Part shown: positions 1 through 19,330 of the stretch, piece after piece | Layout: every line of letters starts with the position of its first letter | How positions within the stretch are numbered: the first letter of the stretch is position 1 | Assembly (NCBI RefSeq): GCF_001644705.1 | Contig: NZ_CP015137.1 | Coordinates: forward strand, 660,001-692,000 | Direction of reading: 5' to 3' | From: Dickeya solani IPO 2222 | GTDB lineage: Bacteria > Pseudomonadota > Gammaproteobacteria > Enterobacterales > Enterobacteriaceae | Length of the DNA stretch: 32,000 bases | The notes under the pieces: generated by a model | What the model was told of the DNA's origin: nothing | Seen by the model: the letters and a program-made list of their open reading frames with translations, nothing else | The model's database searches: none | Made by a program: the position numbers and the translations under genes

Positions 1-564
1 ATAGCCATCGCCGCCCAAAAGCCCGATCTCGTGATGCTGGATAACTATCTGCCCGATGGCACCGGGATCGACATCATGAAACATCTGCGCACCACACAGC
101 CGGATATCGACGTCATTTTCATCACCGCCGCCAACGACATCGACACGATTAAAACCGCGATACGCCACGGCGCCTGTGACTATCTGGTAAAACCGTTCAT
201 GCTGGAAAGGCTGGAAGAAGCATTAAAAAACTATCTGATGTTCAGCAGAAAGGTACGCCAGAAATCGCACCTGCCACAGGAAGAGATCGATCGCGTGATA
301 CGCCAGTCGATCCCCTATAGCGCACCGGCCGGATTCATTTATCCGAAAGGCATTGATGAACTGACGCTCAATCAGGTGCGGGCGGCATTTTCCGGCGAGA
401 ACGTCCAGCACACCGCCGACAGCCTGAGCGACACGATCGGTATCAGCAAGTCCACCGCCCGGCGCTATCTGGAATACTGCAAAAACATCAAACTGCTGGA
501 AGCGCACATCCAGCACGGCACCGTCGGACGCCCCCAACGCTTCTACCGTCTGACCTTCAATTAA
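1..564 (+). CDS. Two-component response regulator, CitB/DcuR family (5'-truncated by window edge)
   Basis: The reading frame is open from nt 1 (IAIAAQKPDLVMLDNYLPDGTGIDIM...). Receiver-domain motifs are present (LVKPF), and the C-terminal HTH (ISKSTARRYLEYC...HGTVGRPQRFYRL) is typical of DcuR/CitB regulators. Stop at 562-564. Confidence 0.8.
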   Translation: MAIAAQKPDLVMLDNYLPDGTGIDIMKHLRTTQPDIDVIFITAANDIDTIKTAIRHGACDYLVKPFMLERLEEALKNYLMFSRKVRQKSHLPQEEIDRVIRQSIPYSAPAGFIYPKGIDELTLNQVRAAFSGENVQHTADSLSDTIGISKSTARRYLEYCKNIKLLEAHIQHGTVGRPQRFYRLTFN

Positions 565-647
565 CCGGCAACCGCACGTCCCTCACACATCCCGGCCCTG
601 CTGACCATCCGAGTCGCCCGTGCGGGCAGCTCGGCCGGTTCCTCCCG

Positions 648-2138
648 TCAGTGATCCTGACGCTTCAGCACCTGCACCGCACAGGCGATATCCGGCGCCA
701 GCCAGCGATCCTCCTGCCAGGCAGCGACGTGTTGACGCAACGCTTGCCAGGCCCGGTGCGTTCCGGTTCCGGCGTTCTCCGGGCCGAGAAACTCCAGCGC
801 CTGCGCCGCCAGCAGATACTCAATCGCCAGCACGTGCCAGACGTTTTCGGTCAGCTTCAGCAACTTGAGCGCCGCCGGGGTACCCATGCTGAGGTGATCT
901 TCCTGCAAGCCGGAGGTGACGAAATTATCCACCACGGCGGGCTGCGCCAGTTGGCGGTTCTCGCCGCACAGCGACGCTGCCACATACTGGGCGATCATCA
1001 TGCCGGAATTCACCCCCGGCTGGGCGACCAGAAATGGCGGTAAACCGCTCACCAGCGGATTGATCAACCGATCAAGCCGACGCTCCGCCACCCCGGCCAG
1101 CTCGCATAACGCCAGCGCCAGACTGTCCGCCGCCAGCGCCACCGCTTCGCCATGCGGATTCGCCTGCGACACCACCCGCCACTGTTCCGGCGTCCCCAGC
1201 ACCAGCGGATTGTCGGTGGCGGCATTCAGTTCCATCTCGATGCGCTGCGCCGACGAGGCAAACTGATCGCGGCAGGCGCCGTGAATTTGCGGGATGGAAC
1301 GCAGGCTCAGCGCATCCTGCGTGCGGATGCCTTCACTCTCGGCGATGATCCGGCTCCCGGCCAACAGGGCGCGCAAACGCTGCCCGACCTGCTGAATGCC
1401 CACGCTCGGTTTCAGCGCCAGCACCTCGGCGTCAAACGCCACCACCTGCCCGCGCAGCGCCTCAAAACTCATCGCGCCGGTCACATCGGCCCAGTCCAAC
1501 TGCCGTGCGGCGTCATCCAACGCCAGACAGGCCAGCCCGGTCATGCACGGCGTACCGTTGACCAGCGATAAGCCGTCTTTCGCCCCCAGCGTCACCGGCG
1601 TGAGACCAATGTGCTGCAACGCCTCCTGCGCCGGCAGCACCTGCCCGTGCAGTTCCACCTCGCCGACGCCGATCAGTGCCAGCCCGATATGCGCCATATG
1701 GGTGAGATACCCGACCGAGCCCTGCGACGGCACGCACGGCGTGGCACCCTGATTCAGCAGCGTCAGCAGCGCCTGCACGATCGCCGGCTGAATCCCGGAC
1801 TTGCCGTGACTGTAATTGGCGATCGCCGCACACAGGATGGCGCGGGTCTGTTCAACGGACAGCCGCGGCCCCACGCCGCAAGCGTGGCTCAGCAAGGTAT
1901 TGCGCGACAGCCGCGCCAGATCCGCCACCGGCAGAGTGACATTGCATAACGCGCCCAGCCCGGTATTCACCCCATAGGCCAGCGTTTCGCTGGCCACGAT
2001 CTGCTCCACAATGCACCGCGACTGATGCATGCGGCGCCAGGCCGCGTCGCTCAGACTCAGGCGCGCGCCGTAACGGGCCACCTGCACCAGTTCGCGCCAT
2101 GCCAGCGGCCCGTCGCCCCAGCACACTTCAGTGTTCAT
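648..2138 (-). CDS. Histidine/aromatic amino acid ammonia-lyase family protein (HutH-like paralog) lacking the MIO-forming Ala-Ser-Gly triad
   Basis: The 496-aa ORF is collinear with HutH: YGVNTGLG, SHACG, LVNGT, NPHGEA, VNSGMMIAQY, QEDHLSM. At the MIO position it reads GSVGYLTHMAH instead of GSVGASGDLAPLAHM. It starts 12 nt downstream of the ABC ATPase stop. Confidence 0.85.
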   Translation of the reverse strand: MNTEVCWGDGPLAWRELVQVARYGARLSLSDAAWRRMHQSRCIVEQIVASETLAYGVNTGLGALCNVTLPVADLARLSRNTLLSHACGVGPRLSVEQTRAILCAAIANYSHGKSGIQPAIVQALLTLLNQGATPCVPSQGSVGYLTHMAHIGLALIGVGEVELHGQVLPAQEALQHIGLTPVTLGAKDGLSLVNGTPCMTGLACLALDDAARQLDWADVTGAMSFEALRGQVVAFDAEVLALKPSVGIQQVGQRLRALLAGSRIIAESEGIRTQDALSLRSIPQIHGACRDQFASSAQRIEMELNAATDNPLVLGTPEQWRVVSQANPHGEAVALAADSLALALCELAGVAERRLDRLINPLVSGLPPFLVAQPGVNSGMMIAQYVAASLCGENRQLAQPAVVDNFVTSGLQEDHLSMGTPAALKLLKLTENVWHVLAIEYLLAAQALEFLGPENAGTGTHRAWQALRQHVAAWQEDRWLAPDIACAVQVLKRQDH

Positions 2139-2150
2139 ACCCTTGCCTTC

Positions 2151-2933
2151 CTATACCGTCTGGTGACTGGCGATGAATTGTTGAAAACGCGGCGAGCTTT
2201 CGCCGCCAAACATGGCGTCGGGCGTCCCCTCGCAGTCAATCCGCCCCTGATGCATGAACACCACCCGGCTGGACACGTGGCGGGCAAACCCCATTTCATG
2301 GGTGACCACCAGCATCGTGCGCCCCTCTTCGGCCAGCCCGCGCATCACCTTCAGCACGTCGCCGACCAGTTCCGGGTCCAGCGCCGAGGTCGGCTCATCG
2401 AACAGCATGACTTCAGGTTCCATCGACAGCGCCCGGGCAATCGCCACCCGCTGCTGCTGGCCGCCGGAGAGCTGCGTCGGATAAAAATGCCGCCGCTCAT
2501 ACAACCCGACTTTCGCCAGCAGGGCTTCGGCCTGCCCGACACATTCGGCACGTGAGCGCCCGAGGATATGCTGTGGCCCTTCAATGACGTTCTGCATGAC
2601 CGTCATATGGCTCCACAGGTTGAAATTCTGGAACACCATGCCCAGCCGGGCGCGCAGCCGCTCAACCTGACGGCGGTCAGCCGCGACCTGATGGCCCTGT
2701 TTGTGGCGCTTCATCAGGATCATTTCGCCGCTGACGGCGACCGTGCCGGCGTCCGGCGTCTCCAGTAGATTGATGCAACGCAAAAAAGTGCTCTTACCCG
2801 ACCCACTGGCGCCCAGCAGCGAAATCACCTCGCCTTTGCGCGCATCCAGCGAGATCCCCTTAAGCACCTCAAGCGCACCGAATGACTTACGGATATCGAT
2901 CATCGATAAGGTTATGGGGGCGGTTTTATTCAT
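2151..2933 (-). CDS. Polar amino acid ABC transporter ATP-binding protein (HisP/GlnQ-like)
   Basis: Walker [10 protein letters not shown], signature [15 protein letters not shown], Walker [13 protein letters not shown] chose the start at [18 protein letters not shown] (ATG 2933), which overlaps the upstream permease stop by 8 nt. The 286-aa track ORF has a spurious N-terminal extension. Confidence 0.9.
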
Positions 2934-3642
2934 GCTCTCTCCCGGAAGACGCCGACACAGCGGCCAGATTTGGCGATAAGGTGCGTTCCAGCCAGGCAAA
3001 TACCCTGACAATAATGAAATTCAGCAACAGGTAGATCAGCGCGGCGCAGGCAAACACTTCCAGCGTGCGGTAAGTGCGCTGGATGATCTGTTGCGCCACG
3101 CCGGTGACATCCCATACCGTGACCAAACTGGCCAGCGCGGTGGATTTGATCAGCAAAATCGCCTCGGTCGACCAGGCAGGCAACGCATGGCGCAGGGCGA
3201 CCGGCGCAATGATGCGGCGCAGCAGCAGCCAGCGCGACATGCCGCACGCCAGACCCGCTTCAATCTGCCCGGCCGGAATCGATAACAGCGCGCCGCGCAG
3301 AATTTCCGCCGTATAACCGGCGGTGCACAACGCCAGCGCCACCACCGCGCAACTGAACGGATCGCGCAGCACCGGCCAGAACAGGCTGTCGCGCACCACG
3401 CTGAACTGCCCCAGTCCGTAATAGATCAGAAATAGCTGAATCAGCAGCGGCGTGCCGCGAAAGATCAGCATATAAAGACGGGCAAACCCGCTCAGCGGCC
3501 AGACACCGCTGACCCGCATCGCCACCAGCAGCACCGAGAGCGTCGCGCCCAGGGCGAACGAGGAAAAAAACAGCCCCAGCGTCACCGGCAACGCCGACAG
3601 TAACCGCAGGAACGTCTGGGTCAGAAAGGCGATATCGATCAT
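2926..3642 (-). CDS. Polar amino acid ABC transporter permease (HisM-like)
   Basis: Begins [15 protein letters not shown]; multi-TM protein with an EAA-like loop ([30 protein letters not shown]). Its ATG overlaps the stop of the upstream permease in an ATGA junction. The 390-aa track ORF is an artefactual upstream extension. Confidence 0.85.
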
Positions 3643-4361
3643 GACGGCTCCTGCATCGTCTTGCGGTGATAAGGCTGGGACAAGGTTTGCTCCAGCCGGG
3701 CAAACGCGGTATTGGAAAACACGGTCAGGATCAGATAGATCGCCGCACCAGCGAGGTAAAACAGGAAATAGTCGCGGGTCGAACCGGCCGCCATCTGGCT
3801 GGCGCGCATCAGTTCGACAATGCCGGTGACCGACACCAGCGCCGAATCCTTCAGGCTCATCTGCCAGACGTTGGACAGCCCCGGCAGGGCAAAGCGCATC
3901 ACCTGCGGCAACAAGATCCGCACCCCGATGCGCCAGCGCGACATGCCGATGGCGCGGGCGGCTTCCAGTTCGCCGGTATTCACCGCCAGACGCGCCGCAC
4001 GGTACACCTCTCCCTGATACGAGGCCGAAATCAGGCCAATCGCCAGCGCGCCGATCAGGAAAGGCGGCAGTTCGAGAAACCCGTCGGCGCCAAACCAACG
4101 CCCGACCTGCGTGAGCACGCCGGAACCGCCAAAATAAAACAGATAAATGATCAGCAGTTCCGGGATGCCGCGAAACACGATGGAATAGGTTTCCCCGGCC
4201 ACGCGCCAGACCCGGCGCGTGGACAGTTTAGCCGCGGCAACCGCCGCGCCGACTAATGCGCCAATGAGCAGCGCCACCGTCGTCAGACACAACGTGGTCA
4301 GCGCGGCCATCGCCAGCAGGCTTCCCCACCCCTGATCACTGAAACCTAACAGGGTCAGCAT
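3639..4361 (-). CDS. Polar amino acid ABC transporter permease (HisQ-like)
   Basis: 240 aa, hydrophobic, with EAA loop EAARAIGMSRWRIGVRILLPQVMRFALPGLSN. Starts 15 nt downstream of the SBP gene stop. Confidence 0.85.
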   Translation of the reverse strand: MLTLLGFSDQGWGSLLAMAALTTLCLTTVALLIGALVGAAVAAAKLSTRRVWRVAGETYSIVFRGIPELLIIYLFYFGGSGVLTQVGRWFGADGFLELPPFLIGALAIGLISASYQGEVYRAARLAVNTGELEAARAIGMSRWRIGVRILLPQVMRFALPGLSNVWQMSLKDSALVSVTGIVELMRASQMAAGSTRDYFLFYLAGAAIYLILTVFSNTAFARLEQTLSQPYHRKTMQEPS

Positions 4362-4376
4362 ACCGTTTCCTCAATC

Positions 4377-5234
4377 TCAGGGAGTGACGTCCGTTTTGAA
4401 CCACTTCTCACTGAGCGTTTTCACCGTTCCGTCCGCCAGCGCTGTTTTAATAGCCGCATCAAATTTTGCCTTCAGCTCCGGATCGCTTTTACGAAAGCCC
4501 AGCGCTTCCCCTTCCCCCCAGATAGGTCCGGTCAGTTGCGGACCGCCTAACGTCAGGTTGTTGTTTTCCGGTTTGCTGAGGATGGAATTGGCAAAGGTGA
4601 CATCGTCAAACACCGCATCGATGCGCCCCGCCTGCAAATCCAGAATGGCATCGGCGGACGCGGTGTATTCACGCACGGTGGCGACATCCCGGAAGTAGGC
4701 GTCGATGAAAGGCGTATAAACGGTGCCGGAAGCAATACCGATGGTTTTGCCCTGCAACGCGCCGCGCAGGCCGGCTACCGCCGGTTTAATCTGGGCGGGA
4801 TCATTCGCCAGTTTAATCATCGCCTTGTCGGCCTCGACGGGCAGCGCCAGCTTGCCCTTAATAGTAATAAAGCTGGCCGGCGTCGATGCATAGGGCAGGG
4901 AGAAGTCCACCACCTGTTTACGCTCCGGGGTAATTACGATGGCATCCATCATCACGTCGAACTTGCCGGCCTGCAGACCGGCGATCATGCCGTCCCAGTT
5001 TTGCACCACCAGCTTGCACTGGATGTTCATCCGCTGGCACAGGATCGTCATCAGTTCCGGTTCAAACCCGCCCAGCTTGCCGCCCGGCAAGGTCAGGTTC
5101 CAGGGTTCGTAGCTGCCTTCCGTCGCGATAGTCACCGACTTCCACTCTTTAGCCTGCGCCCCTGCGCAGAATGCCGCCGCCGCGCTCACAACACATACCG
5201 CCATCACCGATCGAAAAAGTGTGTTCTTCTTCAT
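4377..5234 (-). CDS. Periplasmic substrate-binding protein, HisJ/ArgT (PBPb, family 3) type
   Basis: Start chosen at MKKNTLFRSVMAVCVVSAAAAFCAGAQA (signal peptide ending AQA), preceded by a GGGGAAGG Shine-Dalgarno. The mature part has the family-3 SBP pattern (WKSVTIATEGSYEPWN..., FDVMMDAIVITPERK, GIASGT). Confidence 0.85.
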   Translation of the reverse strand: MKKNTLFRSVMAVCVVSAAAAFCAGAQAKEWKSVTIATEGSYEPWNLTLPGGKLGGFEPELMTILCQRMNIQCKLVVQNWDGMIAGLQAGKFDVMMDAIVITPERKQVVDFSLPYASTPASFITIKGKLALPVEADKAMIKLANDPAQIKPAVAGLRGALQGKTIGIASGTVYTPFIDAYFRDVATVREYTASADAILDLQAGRIDAVFDDVTFANSILSKPENNNLTLGGPQLTGPIWGEGEALGFRKSDPELKAKFDAAIKTALADGTVKTLSEKWFKTDVTP

Positions 5235-5271
5235 GCCTTCCCCCTGATGTTTCACCGTCAAAGTAATTACA

Positions 5272-5281
5272 TGTATATACA
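5272..5281. promoter_or_regulatory. Candidate HutC/GntR-type operator (TGTATATACA) upstream of the ABC importer operon
   Basis: Perfect 10-bp palindrome TGTATATACA, 38 bp upstream of the SBP start codon. It fits the TGTA-N2-TACA pattern that I recall for HutC operators, and it matches the motif found at 7389-7408 and 7566-7575. Confidence 0.45.
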
Positions 5282-5388
5282 ACATCAAATAAGCAGCAAA
5301 ATTCAGGCCATGATTTCAATCACCTGCCAAATCAGGCCCGGTAACGGTTATCAGGGCATAGCAAAGCATCAGAAAAGGATATTCGGGG

Positions 5389-5412
5389 GTGCACCGCACA
5401 ACCGCGGTGCAC
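5389..5412 (-). terminator. GC-rich stem-loop just downstream of hutD (possible terminator or attenuator between hutD and the ABC operon)
   Basis: GTGCACCGC-acaacc-GCGGTGCAC: 9-bp perfect stem with a 6-nt loop, about 35 nt after the hutD stop. There is no clean U-tract directly after it on the minus strand. Confidence 0.3.
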
Positions 5413-5446
5413 AATGATCGTGCAACTGGATGATGCACAAAGCAGA

Positions 5447-5989
5447 TTATCGGGCGTGAATCGTCGTCAGGAGCAGCGCGGCATGGTCGTCATCAGGCGT
5501 CCAGCGCGCGCCCGAAGACCGCCACCAGCCGCCCTCCCCGGCAGCCAGTCGGTGTGCGCCGACACGCCAGTGTCCTGCCAGCACATACGCCACGCCGTCC
5601 GTATCCGATGCCGTCGCACCGTTAACTAGCGCTACGTCTGCCCGATAACGACGGCGATCGACCATAATATTGAAGTCCAGACTAACGCCGCCGCATAGCC
5701 GCGCCGCGATCGCCAGCTCGCCGGCGAAGGTGAACGGCTGATGCAGCGTCAGCCGGTGCAGCCAAGCCTCGCCGCACAGATCCACGCCGTCGCCGGACAG
5801 CAGGGTGATCACCCGGTCCACGCCGGGAAAACAGGAAAAATCGCCGTCGCGCTCGATAGTGGCGATACTGGCGCGCCAGGCAAAATCGCCGCCGGGTTCA
5901 TCCGACGGTATCCGGCAGATTTCACGGGTTTCGCCGCCGCCGTTTTTCCAGCGACTGACCGGCAAGGTATTCAGGCTGAAGGTTTGCAT
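5447..5989 (-). CDS. hutD: HutD-family protein
   Basis: Start at MQTFSLNTLPVSRWKNGGGETREI, the characteristic HutD/Ves N-terminus. Its ATG overlaps the hutF TGA by 1 nt (TGATG). The track ORF carries a 35-aa spurious extension. Confidence 0.8.
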   Translation of the reverse strand: MQTFSLNTLPVSRWKNGGGETREICRIPSDEPGGDFAWRASIATIERDGDFSCFPGVDRVITLLSGDGVDLCGEAWLHRLTLHQPFTFAGELAIAARLCGGVSLDFNIMVDRRRYRADVALVNGATASDTDGVAYVLAGHWRVGAHRLAAGEGGWWRSSGARWTPDDDHAALLLTTIHAR

Positions 5990-7353
5990 CACATCAGCGC
6001 CTGCAATGTTTTCATGACCTCGATAAACCGGGCGTCGACCTCCTCGTCCAGCGCGTGCCGCCCGTCTTCGATCACCGGTTTGCCCGCCACCCACACATCG
6101 CGGATCTGTTGACGATCGCCGGCAAACAGCCAGCGGTTGAGCAGGCTGTCGTCAGGGAGCGCGCTTAGCAGAGCATCTTCGCGCAGCACCAGCCAGTCAG
6201 CGCGCCAGCCGGCGCTCAGTTCGCCGACCGGCACCCGGCAGGCCTGTGCGCCGCCCTGCAACGCCTGACGATACAACAAGCTGCCGACCGCCGGTTGCTG
6301 CGCCGTCGCCACCCGGTTACGGCGGCGATCGCGCAGGCGCTGGCCGTATTCCAGCCAGCGCAGTTCCTCCACCACATTCAGCGACACATGGCTGTCGGAA
6401 CCGATGCCCCAACGCCCACCCAGCGCCACGTAACGGTCGAGCGGGAAAATACCGTCGCCCAGATTGGCTTCGGTGGTCGGGCACAATCCGGCCACCGCCA
6501 GGCTGCCGGCCAACCGACTCAGTTCCTGTTCATCCAAATGGGTGGCATGCACCAGACACCAGCGGGCATCCACCGCAAACCGGTTGAACAGCCACTGCAC
6601 CGGGCGTTCGCCGCTCCAGTTCAGGCAGTCGTCCACCTCTTTTTGCTGTTCGGCGATATGGATATGCACCGGCAGGCTGCTGTCGGTCGCTTCCAACACA
6701 TCTTCCATCTGGTTCTGGCTGACCGCGCGCAGCGAATGGAAACACAGCCCGTGATTGAGCAACGGATAAGGCTGAATCAGCGCCGCCAGCGTTTCCTGCT
6801 GACGCAGGTAGTGATCCACATCCTGAATAAAACGCGCCTGCCCCGGCTGCGGCGGCTGCGCGCCGAATCCGCTGTAGCTGTAAAGCACCGGCAGCAGGGT
6901 CTGGCCGATGCCGACCCGCTGCGCCGCCGCCAGCAAATGACGCAACATGTCATGCTGACGGTACGGTTTGCCGTGCGGGTCGTGGTGCAGATAATGAAAT
7001 TCCGCCACCTGACTGTAGCCGCCCTTGAGCATATCGATATACAGCCGGGTGGCGATCACCCCCACCTGCTCCGGCGTCAGATTCGCGACCATGCGGTACA
7101 TCAGGTCACGCCAGGTCCAGAAGCTGTCCTGCGGATCACCAGCCACCTCCGCCAACCCGGCCATCGCGCGCTGAAAAGCGTGCGAATGCAGGTTGACCAC
7201 CGTCGGCAGCACAATGCCGGTTAGCTGCTGTGCGCCTTCCGGCGAGGCATCCGGCGTGACGGATTGCAAATACCCCAGTTCATCCACTTCCAGACGCACA
7301 TTGCGCGCCATTCCCTGCGGCAACAGCGCGCGCGCGGCAAAATAAACGGACAT
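5989..7353 (-). CDS. hutF: Formimidoylglutamate deiminase
   Basis: 454 aa, near-collinear with Pseudomonas HutF as I recall it: NLHSHAFQRAMAGLAEVAG, DSFWTWRDLMYRMV, LCFHSLRAV, VHIHIAEQQKEVDDC, GIGSDSHVSLNVVEELRWLEYGQRLRDRRRN. Confidence 0.9.
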   Translation of the reverse strand: MSVYFAARALLPQGMARNVRLEVDELGYLQSVTPDASPEGAQQLTGIVLPTVVNLHSHAFQRAMAGLAEVAGDPQDSFWTWRDLMYRMVANLTPEQVGVIATRLYIDMLKGGYSQVAEFHYLHHDPHGKPYRQHDMLRHLLAAAQRVGIGQTLLPVLYSYSGFGAQPPQPGQARFIQDVDHYLRQQETLAALIQPYPLLNHGLCFHSLRAVSQNQMEDVLEATDSSLPVHIHIAEQQKEVDDCLNWSGERPVQWLFNRFAVDARWCLVHATHLDEQELSRLAGSLAVAGLCPTTEANLGDGIFPLDRYVALGGRWGIGSDSHVSLNVVEELRWLEYGQRLRDRRRNRVATAQQPAVGSLLYRQALQGGAQACRVPVGELSAGWRADWLVLREDALLSALPDDSLLNRWLFAGDRQQIRDVWVAGKPVIEDGRHALDEEVDARFIEVMKTLQALM

Positions 7354-7388
7354 AGCGACATCCTGTTGGTGATCATCGTTGGCAATAT

Positions 7389-7408
7389 TGTATAGACATA
7401 TCTATACA
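7389..7408. promoter_or_regulatory. Candidate HutC-type operator pair (TGTATAGACA / TATCTATACA) upstream of hutF
   Basis: TGTATAGA-CATA-TCTATACA: perfect 8-bp arms with a 4-bp centre. Read as 10-mers it is two abutting copies of TGTATAGA[CT]A in inverted orientation. It lies 36-55 bp upstream of the hutF start. Confidence 0.55.
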
Positions 7409-7563
7409 CCAAAGTTAGCTGCACATGACATAAGGCTTTTTTATTGCGCATTTTTTATTGTGCATGAGAGAAACCGGTTAACTGCCGGTACTGTGACGGA
7501 GAAAGTGAATAAGAAATTCCTATTCCGTCACAGCTTGCTGAAATCCTGCGGTGGGGCGTATAA

Positions 7564-7577
7564 CTTGTCTATACAAG
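7564..7577. promoter_or_regulatory. Candidate HutC-type operator upstream of hutI
   Basis: CTTGTCTATACAAG; its reverse complement CTTGTATAGACAAG contains TGTATAGACA. It lies about 107 bp upstream of the hutI ATG in the hutF/hutI divergent region. Confidence 0.5.
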
Positions 7578-7683
7578 ACTATACCCATCATACTTCGAGT
7601 TACAGGTGCGTGGCGTTATTCAACACGCCAGCGTGTTGCCCTGCAACTCGAATTATTTTAGTTATATAACAAGGAAATACAGC

Positions 7684-8898
7684 ATGACGATAGCCTGTGA
7701 CAGCCTGTGGCTGGGCGCCGATCTGGTCACTCTGCGTGGCGGCCGCTATCAGGTGATTGAGGATGGCGCGCTGGCCGTTACCGCCGGCCGCATCGTCTGG
7801 CTGGGGGCGCGGCAAGCCTTGCCCGCTATCGCGCCGTCGCGCGTCACCGATTTTGGCGGCGGCATCATTACGCCCGGTTTTATCGACTGCCATACCCATC
7901 TGGTGTTTGGCGGCGATCGCAGCGGCGAATTCGAACAGCGCCTCAACGGCGTCAGCTATGCCGACATCGCCGCAGCGGGCGGCGGCATTCTGGCCACCGT
8001 CAACGCCACCCGGCAGGCGGATCACGACAGCCTGTTCGCCTCGGCGCTCGCGCGTTTGCGGCCGTTACTGGCCGAAGGCGTCACCACGCTGGAGATCAAG
8101 TCCGGCTACGGGCTGGATGTGGACAGCGAGCTGAAAATGCTGCGGGTGATCCGCGAACTGGGGCGGCAGCAGCCGGTGCAGATTGTCTCCACCTGTCTGG
8201 CTGCCCACGCCATCCCGCCGGAATTCAGGCAGCAGCCGGAGGCGTGGATCGATCTTGTCTGCCGCGAACTGCTGCCGGCGGTGGTCAACGAAGGGCTGGC
8301 CGACGCCGTTGATGCCTTCTGCGAACATCTGGCGTTCAGCCCGGCGCAGGTAGAACGGCTGTTTCAGGCGGCGCAAACGCACAAGCTGCCGGTCAAGCTG
8401 CATGCCGAGCAATTATCGTCACTGCATGGCAGCGCGCTGGCCGCACGCTTTCAGGCGCTGTCCGCCGATCATCTGGAATACGCCACCGAACAGGACGTGG
8501 CGGCGATGGCCGCGGCGGGAACGGTGGCGGTGCTGTTGCCCGGCGCCTATTACCTGCTGCGGGAAACCCAATGCCCACCGGTCGACCTGTTCCGCCGCCA
8601 CGGCGTGCCGATGGCGATCGCCAGCGACTGCAACCCCGGCACCTCGCCCGCGCTATCGCTGCGACTGATGCTGAACATGGCCTGCACCCTGTTCCGGCTG
8701 ACGCCGGAAGAAGCGCTGGCCGGGGTAACGTTGCACGCGGCCCGCGCGCTGGGACTGGAACAGAGCCACGGCTCGCTGGAAACCGGCAAGGTGGCGGATT
8801 TCGTACACTGGCCGCTGGCGCGCCCGGCGGAACTGGCTTACTGGCTGGGCGGTCAACTGCCCTGCACCACGATTTTTCGCGGAGAACAACGTCCATGA
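7684..8898 (+). CDS. hutI: Imidazolonepropionase
   Basis: Start at [17 protein letters not shown] with an AAGGAA SD upstream. Amidohydrolase metal motif [13 protein letters not shown], then EIKSGYGL, and [10 protein letters not shown] near the C-terminus. Confidence 0.92.
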
Positions 8899-9695
8899 CC
8901 CCGTTTACGTTTATCGAGGGCGACAGCCCGCTGCTGCTCAGCATTCCCCACGCCGGCACCGACCTGACGCCGGAGGTAGCTAGCGGGCTCAGCCCCGCCG
9001 CGCGTCCGCTGTCGGATACCGACTGGCATATCCCGCAGTTGTACGACTTTGCCCGTGGCCTGGGCGCCAGCGTGCTGGCGGCCAACTATTCGCGTTTTGT
9101 TATCGACCTGAACCGCCCGGCCGACGATCAGCCGCTGTACACCACCGCCACCACCGGCCTGTTCCCGGATGTGCTGTTTGACGGCACCCCGGCGTTCATC
9201 CCCGGCAACGCGCCGTCGGAAGCAGTGCGCGCCGGTTATCTGCGCGATATCTGGCAGCCTTATCATCAGACGCTGCAACAGCAGTTGGCGCGTATCAAAC
9301 AGCGTTACGGTTATGCGCTGCTGTTCGACGCCCACTCCATCGCGTCGCGTATTCCACGTTTGTTTGACGGCGCATTGCCGGATTTGAACCTCGGCACCAA
9401 CGGCGGTCTCAGTTGCGCGCCCGCCATCGAATCGGCGTTGCTGGAGGCCTGCCAGTCGCAATACCGCTGGAGCTGGGTACTGAACGGCCGTTTCCGCGGC
9501 GGTTATATCACCCGAGCCTACGGCCAGCCGGAGCAGCATCAGTACGCACTGCAGTTGGAACTGGCGCAGTGCAACTACATGAGCGAACAGGCGCCGTTCG
9601 CCTGGCAACCGGCCAAGGCGCGGGAACTGCAACCGATGCTGGAACGCATCGTGCGCACCTTTATGGACACGGCGGCCAGGCTGTATCACAGCTGA
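8895..9695 (+). CDS. hutG: N-formylglutamate amidohydrolase
   Basis: Start [22 protein letters not shown]; its ATG overlaps the hutI TGA (ATGA). The length of 266 aa is as expected for FGase. The 374-aa track ORF is an out-of-gene extension inside hutI. Confidence 0.9.
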
Positions 9696-9723: not shown

Positions 9724-11667
9724 TCAGAGAGGCGGGCCAACCCGAGCATCGCCGCCATCGGCCACCACAAAGCGATCGACGGTTTCTTTCATGTCGCTGG
9801 CCTGCCTGTCGAGCAATTGGCTGGCGCTGGCCGCCTGTGACACCAGCGCCGCATTCTGCTGTGTCACCTGTTCCAGCTGATTCAGCGCCAGATGCACCTG
9901 ATCTACACCAAGCGACTGCTCCCGCGCTGCGGTAGCGATATCGCTGACAAAATCCCGCACCTGCGACGTACTGGTCATAATCTGCTTCATGGTTTCGCTG
10001 CTGCGCGAAACCAGCGTCACACCGGTATGCACCTGATCAATGCTGGTAGAAATCAGCTCCCTGATGTGTTGCGATTCGTCGGCGCTACGCTGCGCCAGAT
10101 TACGCACCTCGGTCGCCACCACGGCAAACCCGCGTCCTTGCTCACCTGCCCGAGCCGCCTCCACCGACGCATTGAGCGCCAGCAGGTTGGTCTGAAACGC
10201 GATGGCGTCAATCGCCGCGGTGATTTGCGACATCTGCTCGCTGGACTGGCGAATTTGCACCATCGCTTCGCTGGCCTGCAACGTTACCCGATCGGCCACG
10301 CCAATCTGCTGTTCCATGGTTTTCATCAGCTCCGATGCCTGAGCGGCGTAGTCAGCGGTTTGTTTTACCGCCACGGTAATCTGTTCCATGCTGCTGGCGG
10401 TTTCCACCAACGACGCCGCCTGTTCGTCGGTCCGCTGCGCCAGATCCTGATTACCTTGTGCGATGTCATTGCTGGCGCGTTCCACCAACCCGGCGCTTTG
10501 CTTAATGCTACACACGACATGCTCGATATTTTCCAGCGACCGGTTATAAGCCTGATTCAACTGTGAGAGTTCATCCTTGCCTGGAACATCCAGCCGGCAA
10601 GTCAGGTCATTGCCCATTTCATCAATGGTTTTCAGCGTCGAGGTCAATTGCTGATAGACATTACGCGCCACCAGCACCGCCAGCAGCAGCGCCAGCGACA
10701 ACGCCGCCACGGCGCCGCCCAGATAACCGTACCCGCTCAGCCGGGCCTGTTTTTCCAATGCATCCGCCCGGTTCAGTAAATCAGCGGATGCCGCATCCTC
10801 AATGGTTTTAAGCTGGTCGATACGCTGTGTCTGCTGTGTGAACCACTCGTTGGCGTCAACCCCAAATCCCCCGGTCGCCGCTTTGGCAAATGCGGTATCG
10901 CGCATCTTTAGCGCCGGTTGCATTGCCGCGTTGCTCAACGCATCCTGCAGCTGTTTTCTCAGCTCGGGGCGGGCAAACTGGTTGAAGACTGCGGTGTAAG
11001 CCGTCTCCATTCCCGCCAGTTGACTGAAACGTTCATACTGACCCGGGCCAAAGCGATCCACCGCAAACACTTCGGACAACAATGCGCGCATGATGCCGGC
11101 CTGTTCTTTCACATTCAGCAGGTTGTAATACGCCGCCACACGGGTCACCAGTCCGCCGTCTTTCACCAGATGACTCATCTCCCCCACCACGCCGATCAGG
11201 TCGCTAACTGACGAGGTGTACCACCCCACCGCTTGCGCAGCAGGCAGCGAGAAGCCGTCGACCTGAGCGCGCAACGAGGAAAGCGTTTGCAAGCGTTCCT
11301 GCAGGCGGTTCAGGCGCTGTGCAATCGCATCCGCCGCCGCCCCGGACAGGGAAAGCGCCGCCTTACTTTCCCACAGGGCGGATAACGCTTTATCGGTTTC
11401 AACGCGCTGGGTCCGCAACGGGTCGGCGAATTTCTGCCCCTTGCTGCCGATAAAGCCGGAACTCATGCCGCGCTCGCGCTGCAGGGCGTGGGCGGCATTA
11501 CCGGCCCGTTGCGCCAACGCCAGCAACTGGGAAAACTGCGCCATGTCCTGCTCCGCCTGATGGCGTTCCAGTAAACCCTTGCCGGCAAACCACAACAGCG
11601 CAATCAATAACGGCATCAATGCCAGCGCAAACTTATAACGAATGGAAAAAGAGGATAATCGAAGCAT
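9724..11667 (-). CDS. Methyl-accepting chemotaxis protein with periplasmic NIT (nitrate/nitrite-sensing type) domain
   Basis: Start [13 protein letters not shown], preceded by an AAGGGG SD; TM1 follows. The ligand domain shows the NIT signature [20 protein letters not shown] and a later repeat of it. Then come TM2, HAMP, and the conserved MCP signalling domain ([40 protein letters not shown]). Confidence 0.85.
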
Positions 11668-12013
11668 GTACCGCCCCTTGTTTGACCCCAGAGAATGCGT
11701 TGATCTCATAACGCCAGAAATAGTCAACATGACAACTAATGATTCAGTTTTCATCGTCCGTCGGCACGGAAACTTTACTCCTCCTAAAGAAGTACATCGG
11801 CCGGAGAAACACACACCGCAATAATTTGTTCTTATAGATTGATATAGCGCTGCTTTATGCCAGAAAACCGTTAAACCGCGCCCATTCCTGAAACGATAAC
11901 CTCATTAGCAAGCCAGGCATCACAATTAATCACCATACAACGCCTGACAGCCCGCGCCGCTTCTGCCAAAATAGGCGCATACCCCCGCATTGAAAATGAT
12001 GGATTTTCTGTAC

Positions 12014-12883
12014 ATGGTTGCAAAAATTATTGATGGTAAAACGATTGCGCAGCAGGTGAAAGACGAAGTGGCCGTGCGCGTGAAACAACGACTGGCCGAA
12101 GGTAAACGCGCGCCGGGGCTGGCGGTCGTGCTGGTGGGCGACAATCCCGCCTCGCAGATTTATGTCGCCAGCAAACGCAAAGTGTGCGAGGAAGTCGGTT
12201 TCGTTTCCCGCTCCTACGACCTGCCGGCTACCACCACTGAGCCGGAACTGCTGGCGCTGATCGACGAACTGAACGCCGATGCCGCCATCGACGGCATTCT
12301 GGTGCAGCTGCCGTTGCCGGCGGGAATCGACAATACCAAAGTCATCGAGCGCATCGCGCCGGACAAGGACGTGGACGGTTTCCACCCGTATAACGTCGGC
12401 CGGTTATGCCAGCGCGCGCCGCTGCTGCGCCCCTGTACCCCGCGCGGCATCGTCACGCTGCTGGAGCGCTATGACATCAACATGTTCGGCCTGAACGCCG
12501 TGGTGGTTGGCGCATCCAACATTGTTGGCCGTCCGATGAGCATGGAACTGTTGCTGGCGGGCTGCACCACCACCGTTACCCACCGTTTCACCAAGGATCT
12601 GCGTCATCACGTCGAACATGCCGACCTGCTGGTGGTGGCCGTAGGCAAACCGGGGTTTATACCGGGCGAGTGGATCAAACCGGGCGCCATCGTGATTGAC
12701 GTCGGCATCAACCGGCTGGAAAACGGCAAAGTAGTAGGCGATGTGAAATTTGACGAAGCCGCAGAGCGCGCCGCGTATATCACGCCGGTGCCGGGCGGCG
12801 TGGGGCCGATGACGGTCGCGACGCTCATTCAGAACACCTTGCAGGCCTGCGAGGAATTCCACGACACAACGGCACAGGCGTAA
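12014..12883 (+). CDS. folD: Bifunctional methylenetetrahydrofolate dehydrogenase/cyclohydrolase
   Basis: [16 protein letters not shown]... is collinear with E. coli FolD ([15 protein letters not shown]); also [13 protein letters not shown]. The upstream in-frame ATGs (from 11990) are judged non-initiating by comparison with the E. coli N-terminus. Confidence 0.95.
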
Positions 12884-12889
12884 TCTCCC

Positions 12890-13102
12890 ATGAACGTATT
12901 CCATCTGGATAAACACCCGCACGTGGAACTGTGCGATCTGCTGAAACTGCAAGGCTGGAGCGAAAGCGGCGCCGCCGCCAAACAGGCGATTGCCGACGGT
13001 GAAGTGACCGTCGACGGTCATACCGAAACCCGCAAGCGCTGCAAAATCGTCGCCGGTCAGGTTGTGCACTTTGGCGGCGAGTCCGTTACTGTTCAGGCGT
13101 GA
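12890..13102 (+). CDS. ybcJ: S4-like RNA-binding protein YbcJ
   Basis: 70 aa. KHPHVELCDLLKLQGWSESGAAAK...ETRKRCKIVAGQ is nearly identical in pattern to E. coli YbcJ, and it sits next to folD as in E. coli. Confidence 0.9.
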   Translation: MNVFHLDKHPHVELCDLLKLQGWSESGAAAKQAIADGEVTVDGHTETRKRCKIVAGQVVHFGGESVTVQA

Positions 13103-13132
13103 CATGCAGGCTTCCGTAACGGCATGCCGATG

Positions 13133-13163
13133 AAAAAAGGCCCGGAAAAACCGGGCCTTTTCT
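13133..13163. terminator. Bidirectional rho-independent terminator between ybcJ and cysS
   Basis: AAAAAAGGCCCGG-aaaaa-CCGGGCCTTTTCT: GC stem flanked by an A-run and a T-run, so a U-tract follows the hairpin on both strands. It lies between convergent genes. Confidence 0.8.
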
Positions 13164-13193
13164 ATTGGAAGGATGCTATCTGGCGAGTGGCGA

Positions 13194-17284: not shown

Positions 17285-17794
17285 ATGTCATCCAACGCTG
17301 CCCCGGCGAAAATCGCTATTGTTATGGGTTCAAAGAGTGACTGGGCCACCATGCAGTTTGCTGCAGAGATCCTCACCACGCTGAATCTGCCCTATCACGT
17401 TGAAGTCGTCTCCGCGCACCGTACGCCGGACAAACTGTTCAGCTTCGCCGAACAGGCGGACCAGAATGGCTTTGACGTCATTATCGCCGGTGCGGGCGGC
17501 GCCGCTCATCTGCCGGGTATGCTGGCGGCCAAAACCCTGGTGCCGGTGCTGGGCGTTCCGGTACAGAGCGCCGCGTTAAGCGGTGTCGACAGCCTCTATT
17601 CAATTGTGCAGATGCCGCGCGGCATTCCGGTCGGTACGCTGGCCATCGGCAAAGCCGGCGCCGCTAACGCCGCCTTGCTGGCCGCACAGATTCTGGCGCG
17701 TCACGATCCTGAGCTGGCTTCTCGTCTGGCAGCCTGGCGTCAGGCACAGACCGACGAGGTGCTGAACCACCCGGACCCGCGGGAGGATGCATGA
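17285..17794 (+). CDS. purE: N5-carboxyaminoimidazole ribonucleotide mutase
   Basis: Start [20 protein letters not shown], with an AGGAG SD 10 nt upstream. 169 aa, as in E. coli PurE; [19 protein letters not shown]. Confidence 0.95.
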
Positions 17795-18861
17795 AGCCGG
17801 TTTGCGTACTGGGTAACGGCCAACTGGGCCGTATGTTGCGCCAGGCCGGCGAGCCGTTGGGCATCGCCGTTTATCCGGTCGGGCTGGATGCAGAGCCGGA
17901 ATCGGTGCCGGTGCAACACAGCGTCATCACCGCTGAAATCGAACGCTGGCCGGAAACGGCGCTGACCCGCCAGTTGGCGCAGCACCCCGCGTTCGTCAAC
18001 CGCGATATCTTCCCGCGCCTGGCCGATCGCTACACGCAAAAGCAGCTGCTGGATGAACTGAATCTGGCCACTGCGCCCTGGCAATTGCTGGCTTCGGCGC
18101 AGGAATGGCCCGCGGTATTCGCCTCGCTGGGCGAACTGGCGATCGTTAAACGCCGCGTCGGCGGTTATGACGGCCGCGGTCAGTGGCGCATCCGCCCCGG
18201 CGAAGAGCATAGTCTGCCTGCCGAGTGCTACGGCGAGTGCATCGTCGAACAGGGCATCGCTTTTTCCGGCGAAATGTCGCTGGTCGGCGCGCGCAGCACA
18301 ACAGGCGACTGCGTATTCTACCCGCTGACCCACAACCTGCATGAAGACGGCATCCTGCGCGCCAGCGTGGCATTGCCGCAACCGCAGCCGCACCTGCAAC
18401 AGCAGGCGGAACAGATGCTGTCGGCAATCATGCATCGTCTCGGCTACGTGGGCGTGATGGCGATGGAATGCTTCGTGGTGGGCGATCGCCTGCTGATCAA
18501 CGAGCTGGCGCCGCGCGTACACAACAGCGGCCACTGGACGCAAAACGGCGCCTCCATCAGCCAGTTCGAACTGCACCTGCGCGCGATTCTCGACCTGCCG
18601 TTACCGGCCCCGGTGGTCGCCAGCCCGTCGGTGATGGTCAACCTGATCGGCACCGATGTGAATATCGATTGGCTGACGCTGCCGCTGGTGCATCTGCACT
18701 GGTATGAGAAAGAGGTACGCCCGGGCCGCAAGGTGGGTCACCTGAACCTCAATCACCCGGACACCGCGCCGCTGAGTCAGACGCTACGCGCACTGGCGCC
18801 GCTGCTGCCGGATGCCTATCAGGCTGGGCTGGCATGGGCCCAGCAGCAACTGAGCTGCTGA
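17791..18861 (+). CDS. purK: N5-carboxyaminoimidazole ribonucleotide synthase
   Basis: ATGA overlap with pur[17 protein letters not shown]; ATP-grasp pattern; [14 protein letters not shown]. Confidence 0.95.
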
Positions 18862-19330
18862 GTCATTTAATGATACTGGCGGGCCAGCGTCGGCTCGCCG
18901 GTACCTAAAGCAAGATTTTTACGTGACATTATGACGATTGGGTTTATTATTTTCACGGTCTCCAAAATAAATATGTTGCATTGGTTATTTATTTCACCAG
19001 TCGCTATTTCTCATGAAATATATTTCCATTTTATTATCCCCTCAACTAACTGCATTAACGTATCAAAAAAGATACCGCGAAAAATAAATTATTTAACGCA
19101 TCAATCCTGATATTTTATTTTTAATTAATTGCGGTTAAAATAATTGACCTCAATTCATTTATGTGATCGCCTCACTATTATTCCCCAACGGTCAGGATAT
19201 AGAATGCAGCCACAAAAAAGATTACCCCGATTCACATGATGTCTCGTGTGACACCTGCGAATTATCTCTGTATTGGCCTGCAGCCGGTGCGGTATTTTTT
19301 ATACTCTGTGTTCACCAAGGAGAAACACGC

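Follow-up and report, generated by a model that had tools for sequence, protein, structure and literature searches.

The hut locus of Dickeya solani and its importer–lyase operon

A window of 32,000 nucleotides from Dickeya solani IPO 2222 (contig NZ_CP015137.1, positions 660,001 to 692,000 of the forward strand; coordinates below are those of the window) was analysed around one gene, at 648–2138, which had been singled out in an earlier reading of the letters without database searches (the sequence-only reading). The gene encodes a member of the histidine ammonia-lyase (HAL) family that lacks the Ala-Ser-Gly triad from which the cofactor 4-methylideneimidazole-5-one (MIO) is formed. It closes an ATP-binding cassette (ABC) importer operon inside a histidine utilization (hut) locus, and we favour the reading that its product releases trimethylamine from the histidine betaine hercynine. 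The genes and features of the locus are as follows.

648–2138, minus strand: MIO-less HAL-family lyase of the GY-L subfamily, apparent ortholog of Pseudomonas hutH1; 496 aa, PF00221 over its full length
1689–1721, minus strand: former MIO site, codons 140–150, GSVGYLTHMAH, with Tyr144 in place of Ala-Ser-Gly-Asp and a three-residue deletion
2139–2150, minus strand: 12-nt spacer from the ATPase stop codon to the lyase start codon (ATG at 2138), GAAGGCAAGGGT, with a Shine-Dalgarno-like GAAGG
2151–2933, minus strand: HisP-like ABC ATPase, 260 aa; PF00005, boundaries checked
2926–3642, minus strand: ABC permease 2, HisM/ArtM-like, 238 aa; PF00528 and NCBIfam, boundaries checked
3639–4361, minus strand: ABC permease 1, HisQ/ArtQ-like, 240 aa; PF00528, boundaries checked
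4377–5234, minus strand: periplasmic substrate-binding protein (SBP) of the SBP_bac_3 type, OccJ/NocT-like, 285 aa, with a signal peptide; matched to PDB sequences
5272–5282, no strand assigned: HutC-operator-like palindrome TTGTATATACA, ~40 nt upstream of the SBP start codon
5447–5992, minus strand: hutD; PF05962, boundaries checked
5989–7353, minus strand: hutF, formiminoglutamate deiminase; PF22429 and PF01979
7388–7576, no strand assigned: divergent hutF/hutI control region, with two HutC-operator-like palindromes (7388–7398 and 7565–7576)
7684–8898, plus strand: hutI, imidazolonepropionase; amidohydrolase families, start codon and open reading frame context (8,571–9,695) checked
8895–9695, plus strand: hutG, N-formylglutamate amidohydrolase; PF05013, start checked

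The minus strand thus carries, in order, hutF, hutD, a 212-nt gap, the SBP gene, the two permease genes, the ATPase gene, the 12-nt spacer and the lyase gene, with hutI and hutG divergent from hutF. These coordinates agree with the sequence-only reading, which had described the lyase gene as the last cistron of an SBP-permease-permease-ATPase operon, after a 12-nt gap, in a hut locus. In Pantoea and Klebsiella the ATPase stop and lyase start codons overlap (ATGA-type). The pattern TTGTMTAKACA had four matches at three sites in the window, all in hut promoter regions, with none expected by chance. These palindromes resemble the HutC consensus and are probably HutC operators. Because one such site precedes the SBP gene, the ABC–lyase operon seems to form a hut regulon unit in its own right. 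Scans of 400–7800 for promoters and terminators gave nothing above shuffled expectation.

No hutU, hutH or hutC gene was found in the window. In D. zeae (CM001977.1; loci L131 and L132) the same arrangement runs past the point that matches the left edge of the window, and beyond the lyase gene come, up to hutC, a two-component system (DpiA/DcuR-like response regulator and sensor kinase) and an EIIC-GAT gene; past hutC are a CxxCxxCC protein, an NMT1-type ABC system and the canonical hutH–hutU pair. This hutH (ASG type, 520 aa), together with hutU, hutC and another ABC system, is situated ~7–12 kb beyond the lyase gene. The MIO-less lyase is therefore a true paralog, and the canonical hutH has a different ABC importer of its own. 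Such coexistence of a canonical hutH with a GY-L lyase was seen in Dickeya, Pantoea, Brenneria and Pseudomonas. A Dickeya devoid of true hutH, in which the GY-L lyase would be the only entry enzyme, was considered and ruled out, since D. zeae, D. dianthicola and Musicola have canonical HutH. At the left edge of the window, 31–564 holds a DpiA/DcuR-like response regulator gene that is cut by the edge; the hut cluster is split here.

Loss of the MIO triad from a HutH-like active site

The lyase matched PF00221 with 543 bits (residues 13–469 on profile positions 2–466), as expected of the aromatic amino acid lyase superfamily. Its AlphaFold2 model (predicted local distance difference test 87.9, predicted template modelling (TM) score 0.90) gave a Foldseek TM score of 0.93 to HutH of P. 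putida (1B8F), with which it shares 40% identity, and of 0.89 to the ergothionase of Treponema denticola (6S7J). In the HMMER alignment GSVGasgdLAPLAH of P. putida HutH (1B8F, 1EB4) faced GSVGy---LTHMAH of the lyase, leaving a three-residue gap at the triad, and MAFFT agreed. Neither ASG nor CSG nor SSG occurs anywhere in the 496 residues; the sole TSG (408–410) pairs with HutH ‘TSA’ ahead of QEDH, away from the MIO site. Without an Ala-Ser-Gly triad, no MIO can form in the lyase. Translation and alignment, in which no intact triad lay at the MIO position, therefore bear out the sequence-only reading, which had placed GSVGYLTHMAH at codons 140–150 (nt 1689–1721), regarded the MIO segment as deleted and found no ASG in the protein.

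The deletion also removes HutH Asp145, and two further HutH residues are replaced: Tyr280 by Leu277 (QDPYSLR to QDALSLR) and Phe329 by Pro328 (GNFHAEP to ANPHGEA). Tyr and Phe at these two positions were invariant in 118 canonical full-length representatives, all of which have [A/S/T/C]-S-G. The changes had been noticed from the sequence alone and they stand; the catalytic role then given to both positions calls for a minor correction. The HutH structures 1GKJ, 1EB4, 1GK2 and 1GK3 carry mutations at Asp145, Tyr280 and Phe329, and these mutant studies reportedly bore on MIO formation and not on substrate chemistry.

The residues that handle the substrate are retained. The HutH base Tyr53 and the ligands His83, Asn195, Gln277, Arg283, Asn313 and Glu414 correspond to Tyr55, His85, Asn194, Gln274, Arg280, Asn310 and Glu413 of the lyase, where His85 and Glu413 are the imidazole ligands, Gln274, Arg280 and Asn310 the carboxylate ligands and Tyr55 the acceptor of the beta-proton. 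The motifs YGVNTGLG, SHACG, LVNGT and QEDHLSM are all present, as had been reported. With these ligands kept and the model superposing on both HutH and ergothionase, the earlier view that fold and substrate pocket are maintained is upheld.

Profile scores placed the protein near HutH and outside it. It scored 532.4 bits against the hutH equivalog TIGR01225, under the cut-off of 539.15, and 545.6 bits against the broader HAL subfamily model NF006871, above the cut-off of 524; NCBIfam release 20.0 has no model specific to the GY-L lyase. The protein thus differs from HutH (EC 4.3.1.3) in the MIO triad, in Asp145, Tyr280 and Phe329, and in the equivalog score. Judged by its sequence and model, it has the attributes by which MIO-independent trimethylammonia-lyases are recognized (10.1101/2025.08.13.670108; 10.64898/2026.04.22.720169), namely a HAL fold from which the triad is gone, with the Tyr and the carboxylate and imidazole ligands kept.

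Purifying selection acts on the gene. Its ratio of non-synonymous to synonymous substitution rates (dN/dS) was 0.07 against the D. zeae ortholog and 0.16–0.22 against Pantoea, Klebsiella and Brenneria, and GSVGY[LI][TS]HMAH was found in all of the 120 closest database homologs (68–90% identity; Dickeya, Musicola, Brenneria, Pantoea, Erwinia, Klebsiella variicola and Scandinavium). A pseudogene or sequencing artefact is ruled out by the intact reading frame, the dN/dS of 0.07 and the motif in every homolog. The comparison was then widened to 101 full-length GY-L relatives with 32–74% identity to the lyase. G-Y-L and Tyr144 were present in every one, as were Arg280, Asn310 and Glu413; Tyr55 was conserved in 100/100, Gln274 in 100/101 and His85 in 98/101, and the equivalent of HutH Asn195 was Asn in 85 and Ser in 16. 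This conservation fits an active enzyme rather than a relic. Tyr was kept at the Tyr280 position in 4 of the 101 and Phe at the Phe329 position in 8 (P0232 among such cases). Such members may represent an intermediate stage, with the triad lost first and the supporting residues drifting later.

A broad subfamily that includes Pseudomonas hutH1

The MIO-site type was surveyed in the 150 best cluster representatives at 50% identity. About 20 had the ‘G-Y-L’ deletion, two of which read D-Y-S-L and one G-S-L; in these ~20, Leu predominated at the Tyr280 position, and Pro, Ala, Cys, Thr or Gly occupied the Phe329 position. Their hosts included Halomonas, Gluconacetobacter, Roseibium, Brevibacterium and Cysteiniphilum. 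A degenerate DNA pattern for P-x-x-P-x-x-G-S-[VLI]-G-Y-L-x3-A-H, scanned in one genome per species, matched at least 120 loci, and all of the 120 listed matches were genuine GY-L members. Those from Proteobacteria came from Pseudomonas (dozens of species), Enterobacterales, Paraburkholderia, Polaromonas, Halomonas, Paracoccus and acetic acid bacteria, and the others from Bacillus, Peribacillus, Paenibacillus, Clostridium, Oscillospiraceae, Blautia, Eubacterium, Streptomyces, Bifidobacteriaceae and Synergistaceae. The GY-L subfamily is large, with members in Proteobacteria, Firmicutes and Actinobacteria.

In neighbour-joining trees, an ergothionase-like group was monophyletic in 100/100 bootstraps, with the D. 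solani lyase and the GY-L sequences outside it. The lyase fell in a core clade supported in 57/60 bootstraps, with Pseudomonas, Polaromonas, Halomonas, Paraburkholderia, Gluconacetobacter and Roseibium. Other GY-L sub-clades were a Firmicutes type (55/60) and a Paracoccus/Bifidobacteriaceae type (59/60).

The Pseudomonas members are of the hutH1 type. They are 66–69% identical to the Dickeya lyase, have an identical GSVGYLTHMAH and, like it, follow an ABC importer as its last gene in a hut cluster, beside canonical hutH, hutI and hutG. The Pseudomonas order is hutU, (urocanate permease), OpuAC-type SBP, permease, ATPase, GY-L lyase, canonical hutH, hutI and hutG. The importers differ, that of Pseudomonas being of the OpuAC/ProX type (HutXWV) whereas that of Dickeya has the OccJ-like SBP_bac_3 protein. 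Identity, motif and position make the Dickeya lyase an apparent ortholog of hutH1; the hutH1 assignment was made from gene order in more than 40 Pseudomonas species. The hut locus of P. fluorescens has hutH1 as its second hutH homolog, and the P. aeruginosa counterpart is of the PA5093 type. In P. fluorescens, hutH1 is dispensable for growth on histidine and hutH2 is the histidase (PMC8034625). A literature search for hutH1 and the GY-L subfamily found no function beyond ‘not required for growth on histidine’.

Transporters and hut genes beside GY-L lyases

The same-strand gene directly upstream was classified in the 104 listed loci in which the upstream region was covered. A transporter gene lay there in 77, as follows.

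40/104 listed loci, upstream of the GY-L lyase: OpuA/ProU-type (OpuAC) ABC system
23/104 listed loci, upstream: SBP_bac_3-type ABC system with an OccJ-like SBP, as in Dickeya
9/104 listed loci, upstream: BCCT transporter; two more lie downstream in Oscillospiraceae
5/104 listed loci, upstream: MFS transporter

BCCT–lyase pairs occurred in unrelated lineages: Halomonas (where the genes overlap), Brevibacterium, Salinicola, Paracoccus, Bacillus, Alkalihalobacillus and Clostridium. OpuAC-type ABC genes adjoined the lyase in more than 40 Pseudomonas and other loci, and the Pseudomonas SBP of this type matched PF04069 with 212 bits and had the ProX-type glycine betaine binders as its nearest PDB relatives. 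Solutes with a quaternary ammonium group are the classical cargo of the BCCT and OpuAC families. At least one of hutU, hutI, hutG, hutF, hutC and hutD lay within 8 kb of the lyase gene in 73 of the 120 listed loci, and some Bacillus-type operons read hutU-hutI-transporter-lyase. With hut genes adjoining the lyase in Dickeya and in its relatives, the product of the lyase should be plain urocanate.

The Dickeya SBP had its best PDB matches in OccJ (216 bits) and NocT (206), and HisJ gave only 101. It has the longer cluster-F architecture of OccJ and NocT and keeps their side-chain and carboxylate ligands Glu57, Tyr60, Trp63, Trp98 and Arg123. Mapped on a published pocket table (PMC5740067), its pocket reads E57 Y60 W63 W98 D115 A116 V118 R123 T136 A138 A186 T189 V190 Y191 D229 W257. 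The keto-acid signature of OccJ, Ser91-Asn111-Thr163-Ala164-Asn202, is replaced by Val118-Ala138-Val190-Tyr191-Asp229, which also differs from that of NocT, Gly97-Met117-Ser169-His170-Ser207 (PMC5740067). The signature E-Y-W-W-D-A-[V/S]-R-T-A-[A/Q]-T-V-Y-D-W was nearly invariant in 17 SBPs of listed GY-L loci from Enterobacterales, Paraburkholderia, Labrys and Pseudomonas (52–77% identity to the Dickeya SBP), which D115, V190, Y191, D229 and W257 set apart. These 17 proteins are predicted from their pockets to have one common ligand. The pocket would be cation-friendly and, round the alpha-nitrogen, more hydrophobic and aromatic than that of HisJ or LAO; it is compatible with hercynine, and with histidine as well. 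The OccJ/NocT-like rather than HisJ-like character of the SBP is, with the apparent hutH1 orthology and the canonical hutH–hutU pair beyond the window, a point that goes further than the sequence-only reading.

Some of the listed loci had further features. Those of Oscillospiraceae (L012–L017 and L100; gut and rumen Firmicutes) have a sigma-54 activator gene upstream, and the downstream BCCT genes are in L012 and L017. Two lyase genes stand in tandem at L015, L064 and L095. In Paraburkholderia (L023, L088, L093, L112, L113 and L116) two divergent HutC-like GntR genes flank the lyase gene, and next to them is a second SBP_bac_3 ABC system, whose pocket signature, EFFWGPTRADGSAQSY, is quite different. 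The GY-L lyase gene of Brenneria (L010) has no adjacent importer; a second HutC-like GntR gene is upstream of it, and genes for a CesT-family chaperone and a HopA1 type III effector are directly downstream (11634–13182).

A proposed role in hercynine breakdown

The characterized MIO-less members of the family all release trimethylamine from histidine betaines (10.1101/2025.08.13.670108; 10.64898/2026.04.22.720169). They comprise ergothionase (Burkholderia sp. HME13; T. denticola, 6S7J), Swoo_3913, SO_3057, which acts on ergothioneine, and SO_3299, which acts on N-pi-methyl histidine betaine (10.1101/2025.08.13.670108; 10.64898/2026.04.22.720169). The trimethylamino group is reported to be required by these enzymes (10.64898/2026.04.22.720169). 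In T. denticola ergothionase the thiolate of the substrate is bound by Lys384 (IQKTF), a position held by Tyr385 (AQYVA) in the Dickeya lyase and by Tyr in 101/101 GY-L members and most true HutH. Tyr in place of this Lys indicates that the imidazole of the substrate is unsubstituted. Hercynine (N-alpha,N-alpha,N-alpha-trimethyl-L-histidine, histidine betaine) is the favoured candidate, being a histidine-shaped betaine that yields urocanate. We regard it as a somewhat better than even prospect that the gene encodes a cytoplasmic, MIO-independent lyase, derived from the HutH lineage, that converts hercynine to trimethylamine and urocanate for the Hut pathway.

Hercynine would be imported by the upstream ABC system of OccJ-like SBP, two permeases and ATPase. 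Gln274, Arg280 and Asn310 would hold its carboxylate, and His85 and Glu413 its imidazole, as in HutH; Tyr55 would abstract the beta-proton, and the permanently cationic trimethylammonium group could depart as trimethylamine with no electrophilic cofactor. Tyr144, in the space of Ala-Ser-Gly-Asp, probably lines or stabilizes the quaternary ammonium pocket. Urocanate would pass to HutU, HutI, HutF and HutG; at the putative operators it should also relieve repression by HutC. The sequence-only reading had proposed that the lyase acts by elimination on a histidine derivative that has a better leaving group and is imported by the adjacent ABC system. The BCCT and OpuAC partners and the hut neighbours of relatives lend this proposal independent support. 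Of the substrates that it had listed, hercynine has become the favoured one, while ergothioneine is disfavoured by Tyr385, by the position of the lyase outside the ergothionase clade and by the lack of thiourocanate genes nearby.

Precedents exist for both the transport and the reaction. Going by the title of Boncompagni (2000), as cited in PMC5596199, the homologous Hut ABC system of S. meliloti is reported to take up histidine and betaines, which fits an importer of histidine betaine. Swoo_3913 of Shewanella woodyi catalyses the very reaction proposed here, and it and SO_3299 of S. oneidensis share with the lyase a neutral residue at the Lys384 position. Both, however, are periplasmic, ergothionase-like (26% identity to HutH) and coupled to respiratory urocanate reductases (10.1101/2025.08.13.670108), whereas the Dickeya lyase is HutH-like, predicted to be cytoplasmic, and linked to an importer and to Hut catabolism. 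A hercynine lyase was first described in a 2025 preprint, in another clade and in a respiratory periplasmic setting (10.1101/2025.08.13.670108). Cofactor-free trimethylamine lyases of the HAL fold are already known; what is new is a separate lineage, derived from HutH, that has an active-site solution of its own, the hutH1 identity, the cross-phylum breadth and the coupling to importer and catabolic Hut pathway.

Several observations weigh against hercynine as the substrate. The Dickeya importer is of the polar amino acid/opine type and not of the classical betaine type, and D229 stands where LAO and HisJ bind the free alpha-ammonium, such that the SBP could bind histidine itself. Hut ABC systems are reported to carry histidine; HutXWV was reportedly found by Zhang and Rainey, in 2007, to be a minor contributor to histidine uptake, which leaves the argument from the transporters non-exclusive. 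In about a quarter of the listed loci no transporter gene adjoins the lyase gene. Monophyly of all GY-L sequences had neighbour-joining support of only 12/100, so that function may differ between sub-clades. Finally, a literature search for any GY-L member found no hercynine enzyme assay, binding data or mutant phenotype.

More broadly, we judge the chances to be even that many bacteria feed the Hut pathway through two enzymes, each served by an importer of its own: a MIO histidase for histidine and a HutH-derived, MIO-free lyase for histidine betaine. If this is true, it would explain the long-unassigned hutH1 and hutXWV of Pseudomonas and give a function to a hut-cluster gene now annotated ‘histidine ammonia-lyase’ (Pseudomonas hutH1 and its homologs in Enterobacterales, Burkholderiales and Bacillus). 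It would represent a second independent loss of the cofactor in the HAL fold, with Tyr in the place of Ala-Ser-Gly-Asp where ergothionase has Glu-Gly. A microbial source of trimethylamine and urocanate, taxonomically broad and so far unrecognized, would also come to light, with hosts that include Klebsiella, Pantoea, Pseudomonas, Bacillus, gut Oscillospiraceae and Clostridia. Hercynine, a betaine common in fungi, actinobacteria and the diet, would become a nutrient one step away from central metabolism. Urocanate, and hence imidazole propionate, may likewise come from this route, which would be relevant to soil, plant and gut microbiology.

Alternative functions

The alternatives are taken in falling order of probability. 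The lyase might act, by the same cofactor-free elimination, on another alpha-N-modified or activated histidine derivative, such as N-alpha-methyl- or N-alpha,N-alpha-dimethylhistidine or a ring-modified betaine such as N-pi-methyl hercynine. Cofactor loss with a kept pocket fits any histidine derivative that has a good leaving group, the SBP pocket is neither HisJ-like nor opine-like, and SO_3299 demonstrates that specialization on ring-methylated betaines is possible (10.64898/2026.04.22.720169). We nevertheless consider such a substrate unlikely: His85, Glu413 and Tyr385, as in true HutH, point to an unmodified ring; the hut linkage demands plain urocanate; the BCCT and OpuAC partners point to a fully methylated nitrogen; and the characterized MIO-deficient lyases are reported to require the trimethylamino group (10.64898/2026.04.22.720169).

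A non-catalytic role, as a histidine- or urocanate-binding regulator or an importer accessory in which the fold is merely kept, had been offered by the sequence-only reading as its alternative. The lost cofactor, the lack of a hutH1 phenotype on histidine (PMC8034625) and the tight coupling of the lyase gene to the ATPase gene are in keeping with it. It is weakened, to the point of being improbable, by the near-invariance of Tyr55 and of the carboxylate and imidazole ligands in 101 sequences from several phyla, as a binding-only protein would not need Tyr55, and by the retention of full length and HAL fold. Recurrence of the same module with four unrelated transporter families argues against a physical role as transporter accessory.

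A shade less probable again is that the enzyme is an ergothionase, with ergothioneine as substrate and thiourocanate and trimethylamine as products. Among the MIO-less members of the family ergothionase is the best known, and its structure 6S7J and the lyase model have a TM score of 0.89. It shares Leu at the Tyr280 position, and its own elimination of trimethylamine is cofactor-free. The lyase, however, is only 28% identical to 6S7J and scored 189 bits to it as against 315 bits to HutH 1B8F, and the ergothionases form their separate clade (100/100) with a GE[GA]D site (GEGD in 6S7J), a one-residue deletion and Phe329 kept, in contrast to the G-Y and three-residue deletion of the lyase. These scores, Tyr385 and the tree topology rule out membership of the ergothionase clade; the thiolate-binding Lys384 is essential and is Tyr throughout the GY-L set, and the neighbouring genes are hutU and hutI rather than genes of a thiourocanate pathway. 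Since the GY-L site and that of the separate ergothionase clade differ, MIO has been lost by at least two structural routes.

Brenneria supplies a comparison within one genome. At locus L010 a canonical hutH, a GY-L lyase gene (75% identity to the Dickeya lyase) and a third HAL-family gene lie side by side. The third (17707–19254, in the segment 13633–20167, minus strand) is of the ergothionase type: it reads GSIGEA-DL, keeps the Lys of T. denticola K384 and has 6S7J as its best PDB match (243 bits). Its operon encodes an OpuAC SBP, two permeases, an ATPase, an ornithine-cyclodeaminase/mu-crystallin homolog and a phosphonate-type SBP. One genome thus holds all three lyase types, and the presence of a true ergothionase-type gene besides the GY-L lyase counts against ergothionase activity of the latter.

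Another MIO-less motif, GS[VI]G[MV][AS]-DL, with a one-residue deletion, was seen in P0218 and P0239 (682–694 aa) and in P0250; two of these three have an N-terminal extension of ~180 aa, and all cluster with the ergothionase group in the neighbour-joining trees. An ‘E. coli ergothionase’ was reportedly described by Wolff in 1962. The Klebsiella version of the lyase had no DNA homolog in 5,426 complete E. coli genomes (blastn, distant mode), and the 1962 activity is therefore not explained by this gene family.

It is very improbable that the protein serves as a histidine ammonia-lyase, weak or MIO-independent, for imported L-histidine. Its score above the NCBIfam HAL subfamily cut-off (545.6 versus 524), its place inside a hut cluster and the histidine transport by Hut ABC systems reported in the title of Boncompagni (2000) are in favour. 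Against this, it falls below the hutH equivalog cut-off (532.4 versus 539.15), ammonia elimination in the family needs MIO (as summarized in 10.1101/2025.08.13.670108), and the same clusters contain a canonical hutH, with hutH1 dispensable on histidine and hutH2 the histidase in P. fluorescens (PMC8034625).

Least probable, and disfavoured, is an opine lyase that would eliminate alanine from histopine (N-carboxyethyl-histidine) imported by the OccJ/NocT-like SBP: the best PDB matches of the SBP are octopine- and nopaline-binding proteins, the hosts are plant-associated and NocT binds histopine weakly (PMC5740067), but the OccJ keto-acid signature is replaced, Asp229 sits where an Asp (Asp161 in LAO) clashes with the second carboxylate and makes LAO incompatible with octopine (PMC5740067), which renders an opine such as histopine an unlikely ligand, relatives use BCCT and OpuAC transporters, and a secondary amine is a poor leaving group.

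Other features of the window

A gene for a NIT-domain methyl-accepting chemotaxis protein (9724–11814) adjoins hutG. A DUF4879 protein is encoded at 22802–23383, and the region 24515–28314 has two ABC permease genes of unusual length (548 and 718 aa) next to a gene for an ABC ATPase.

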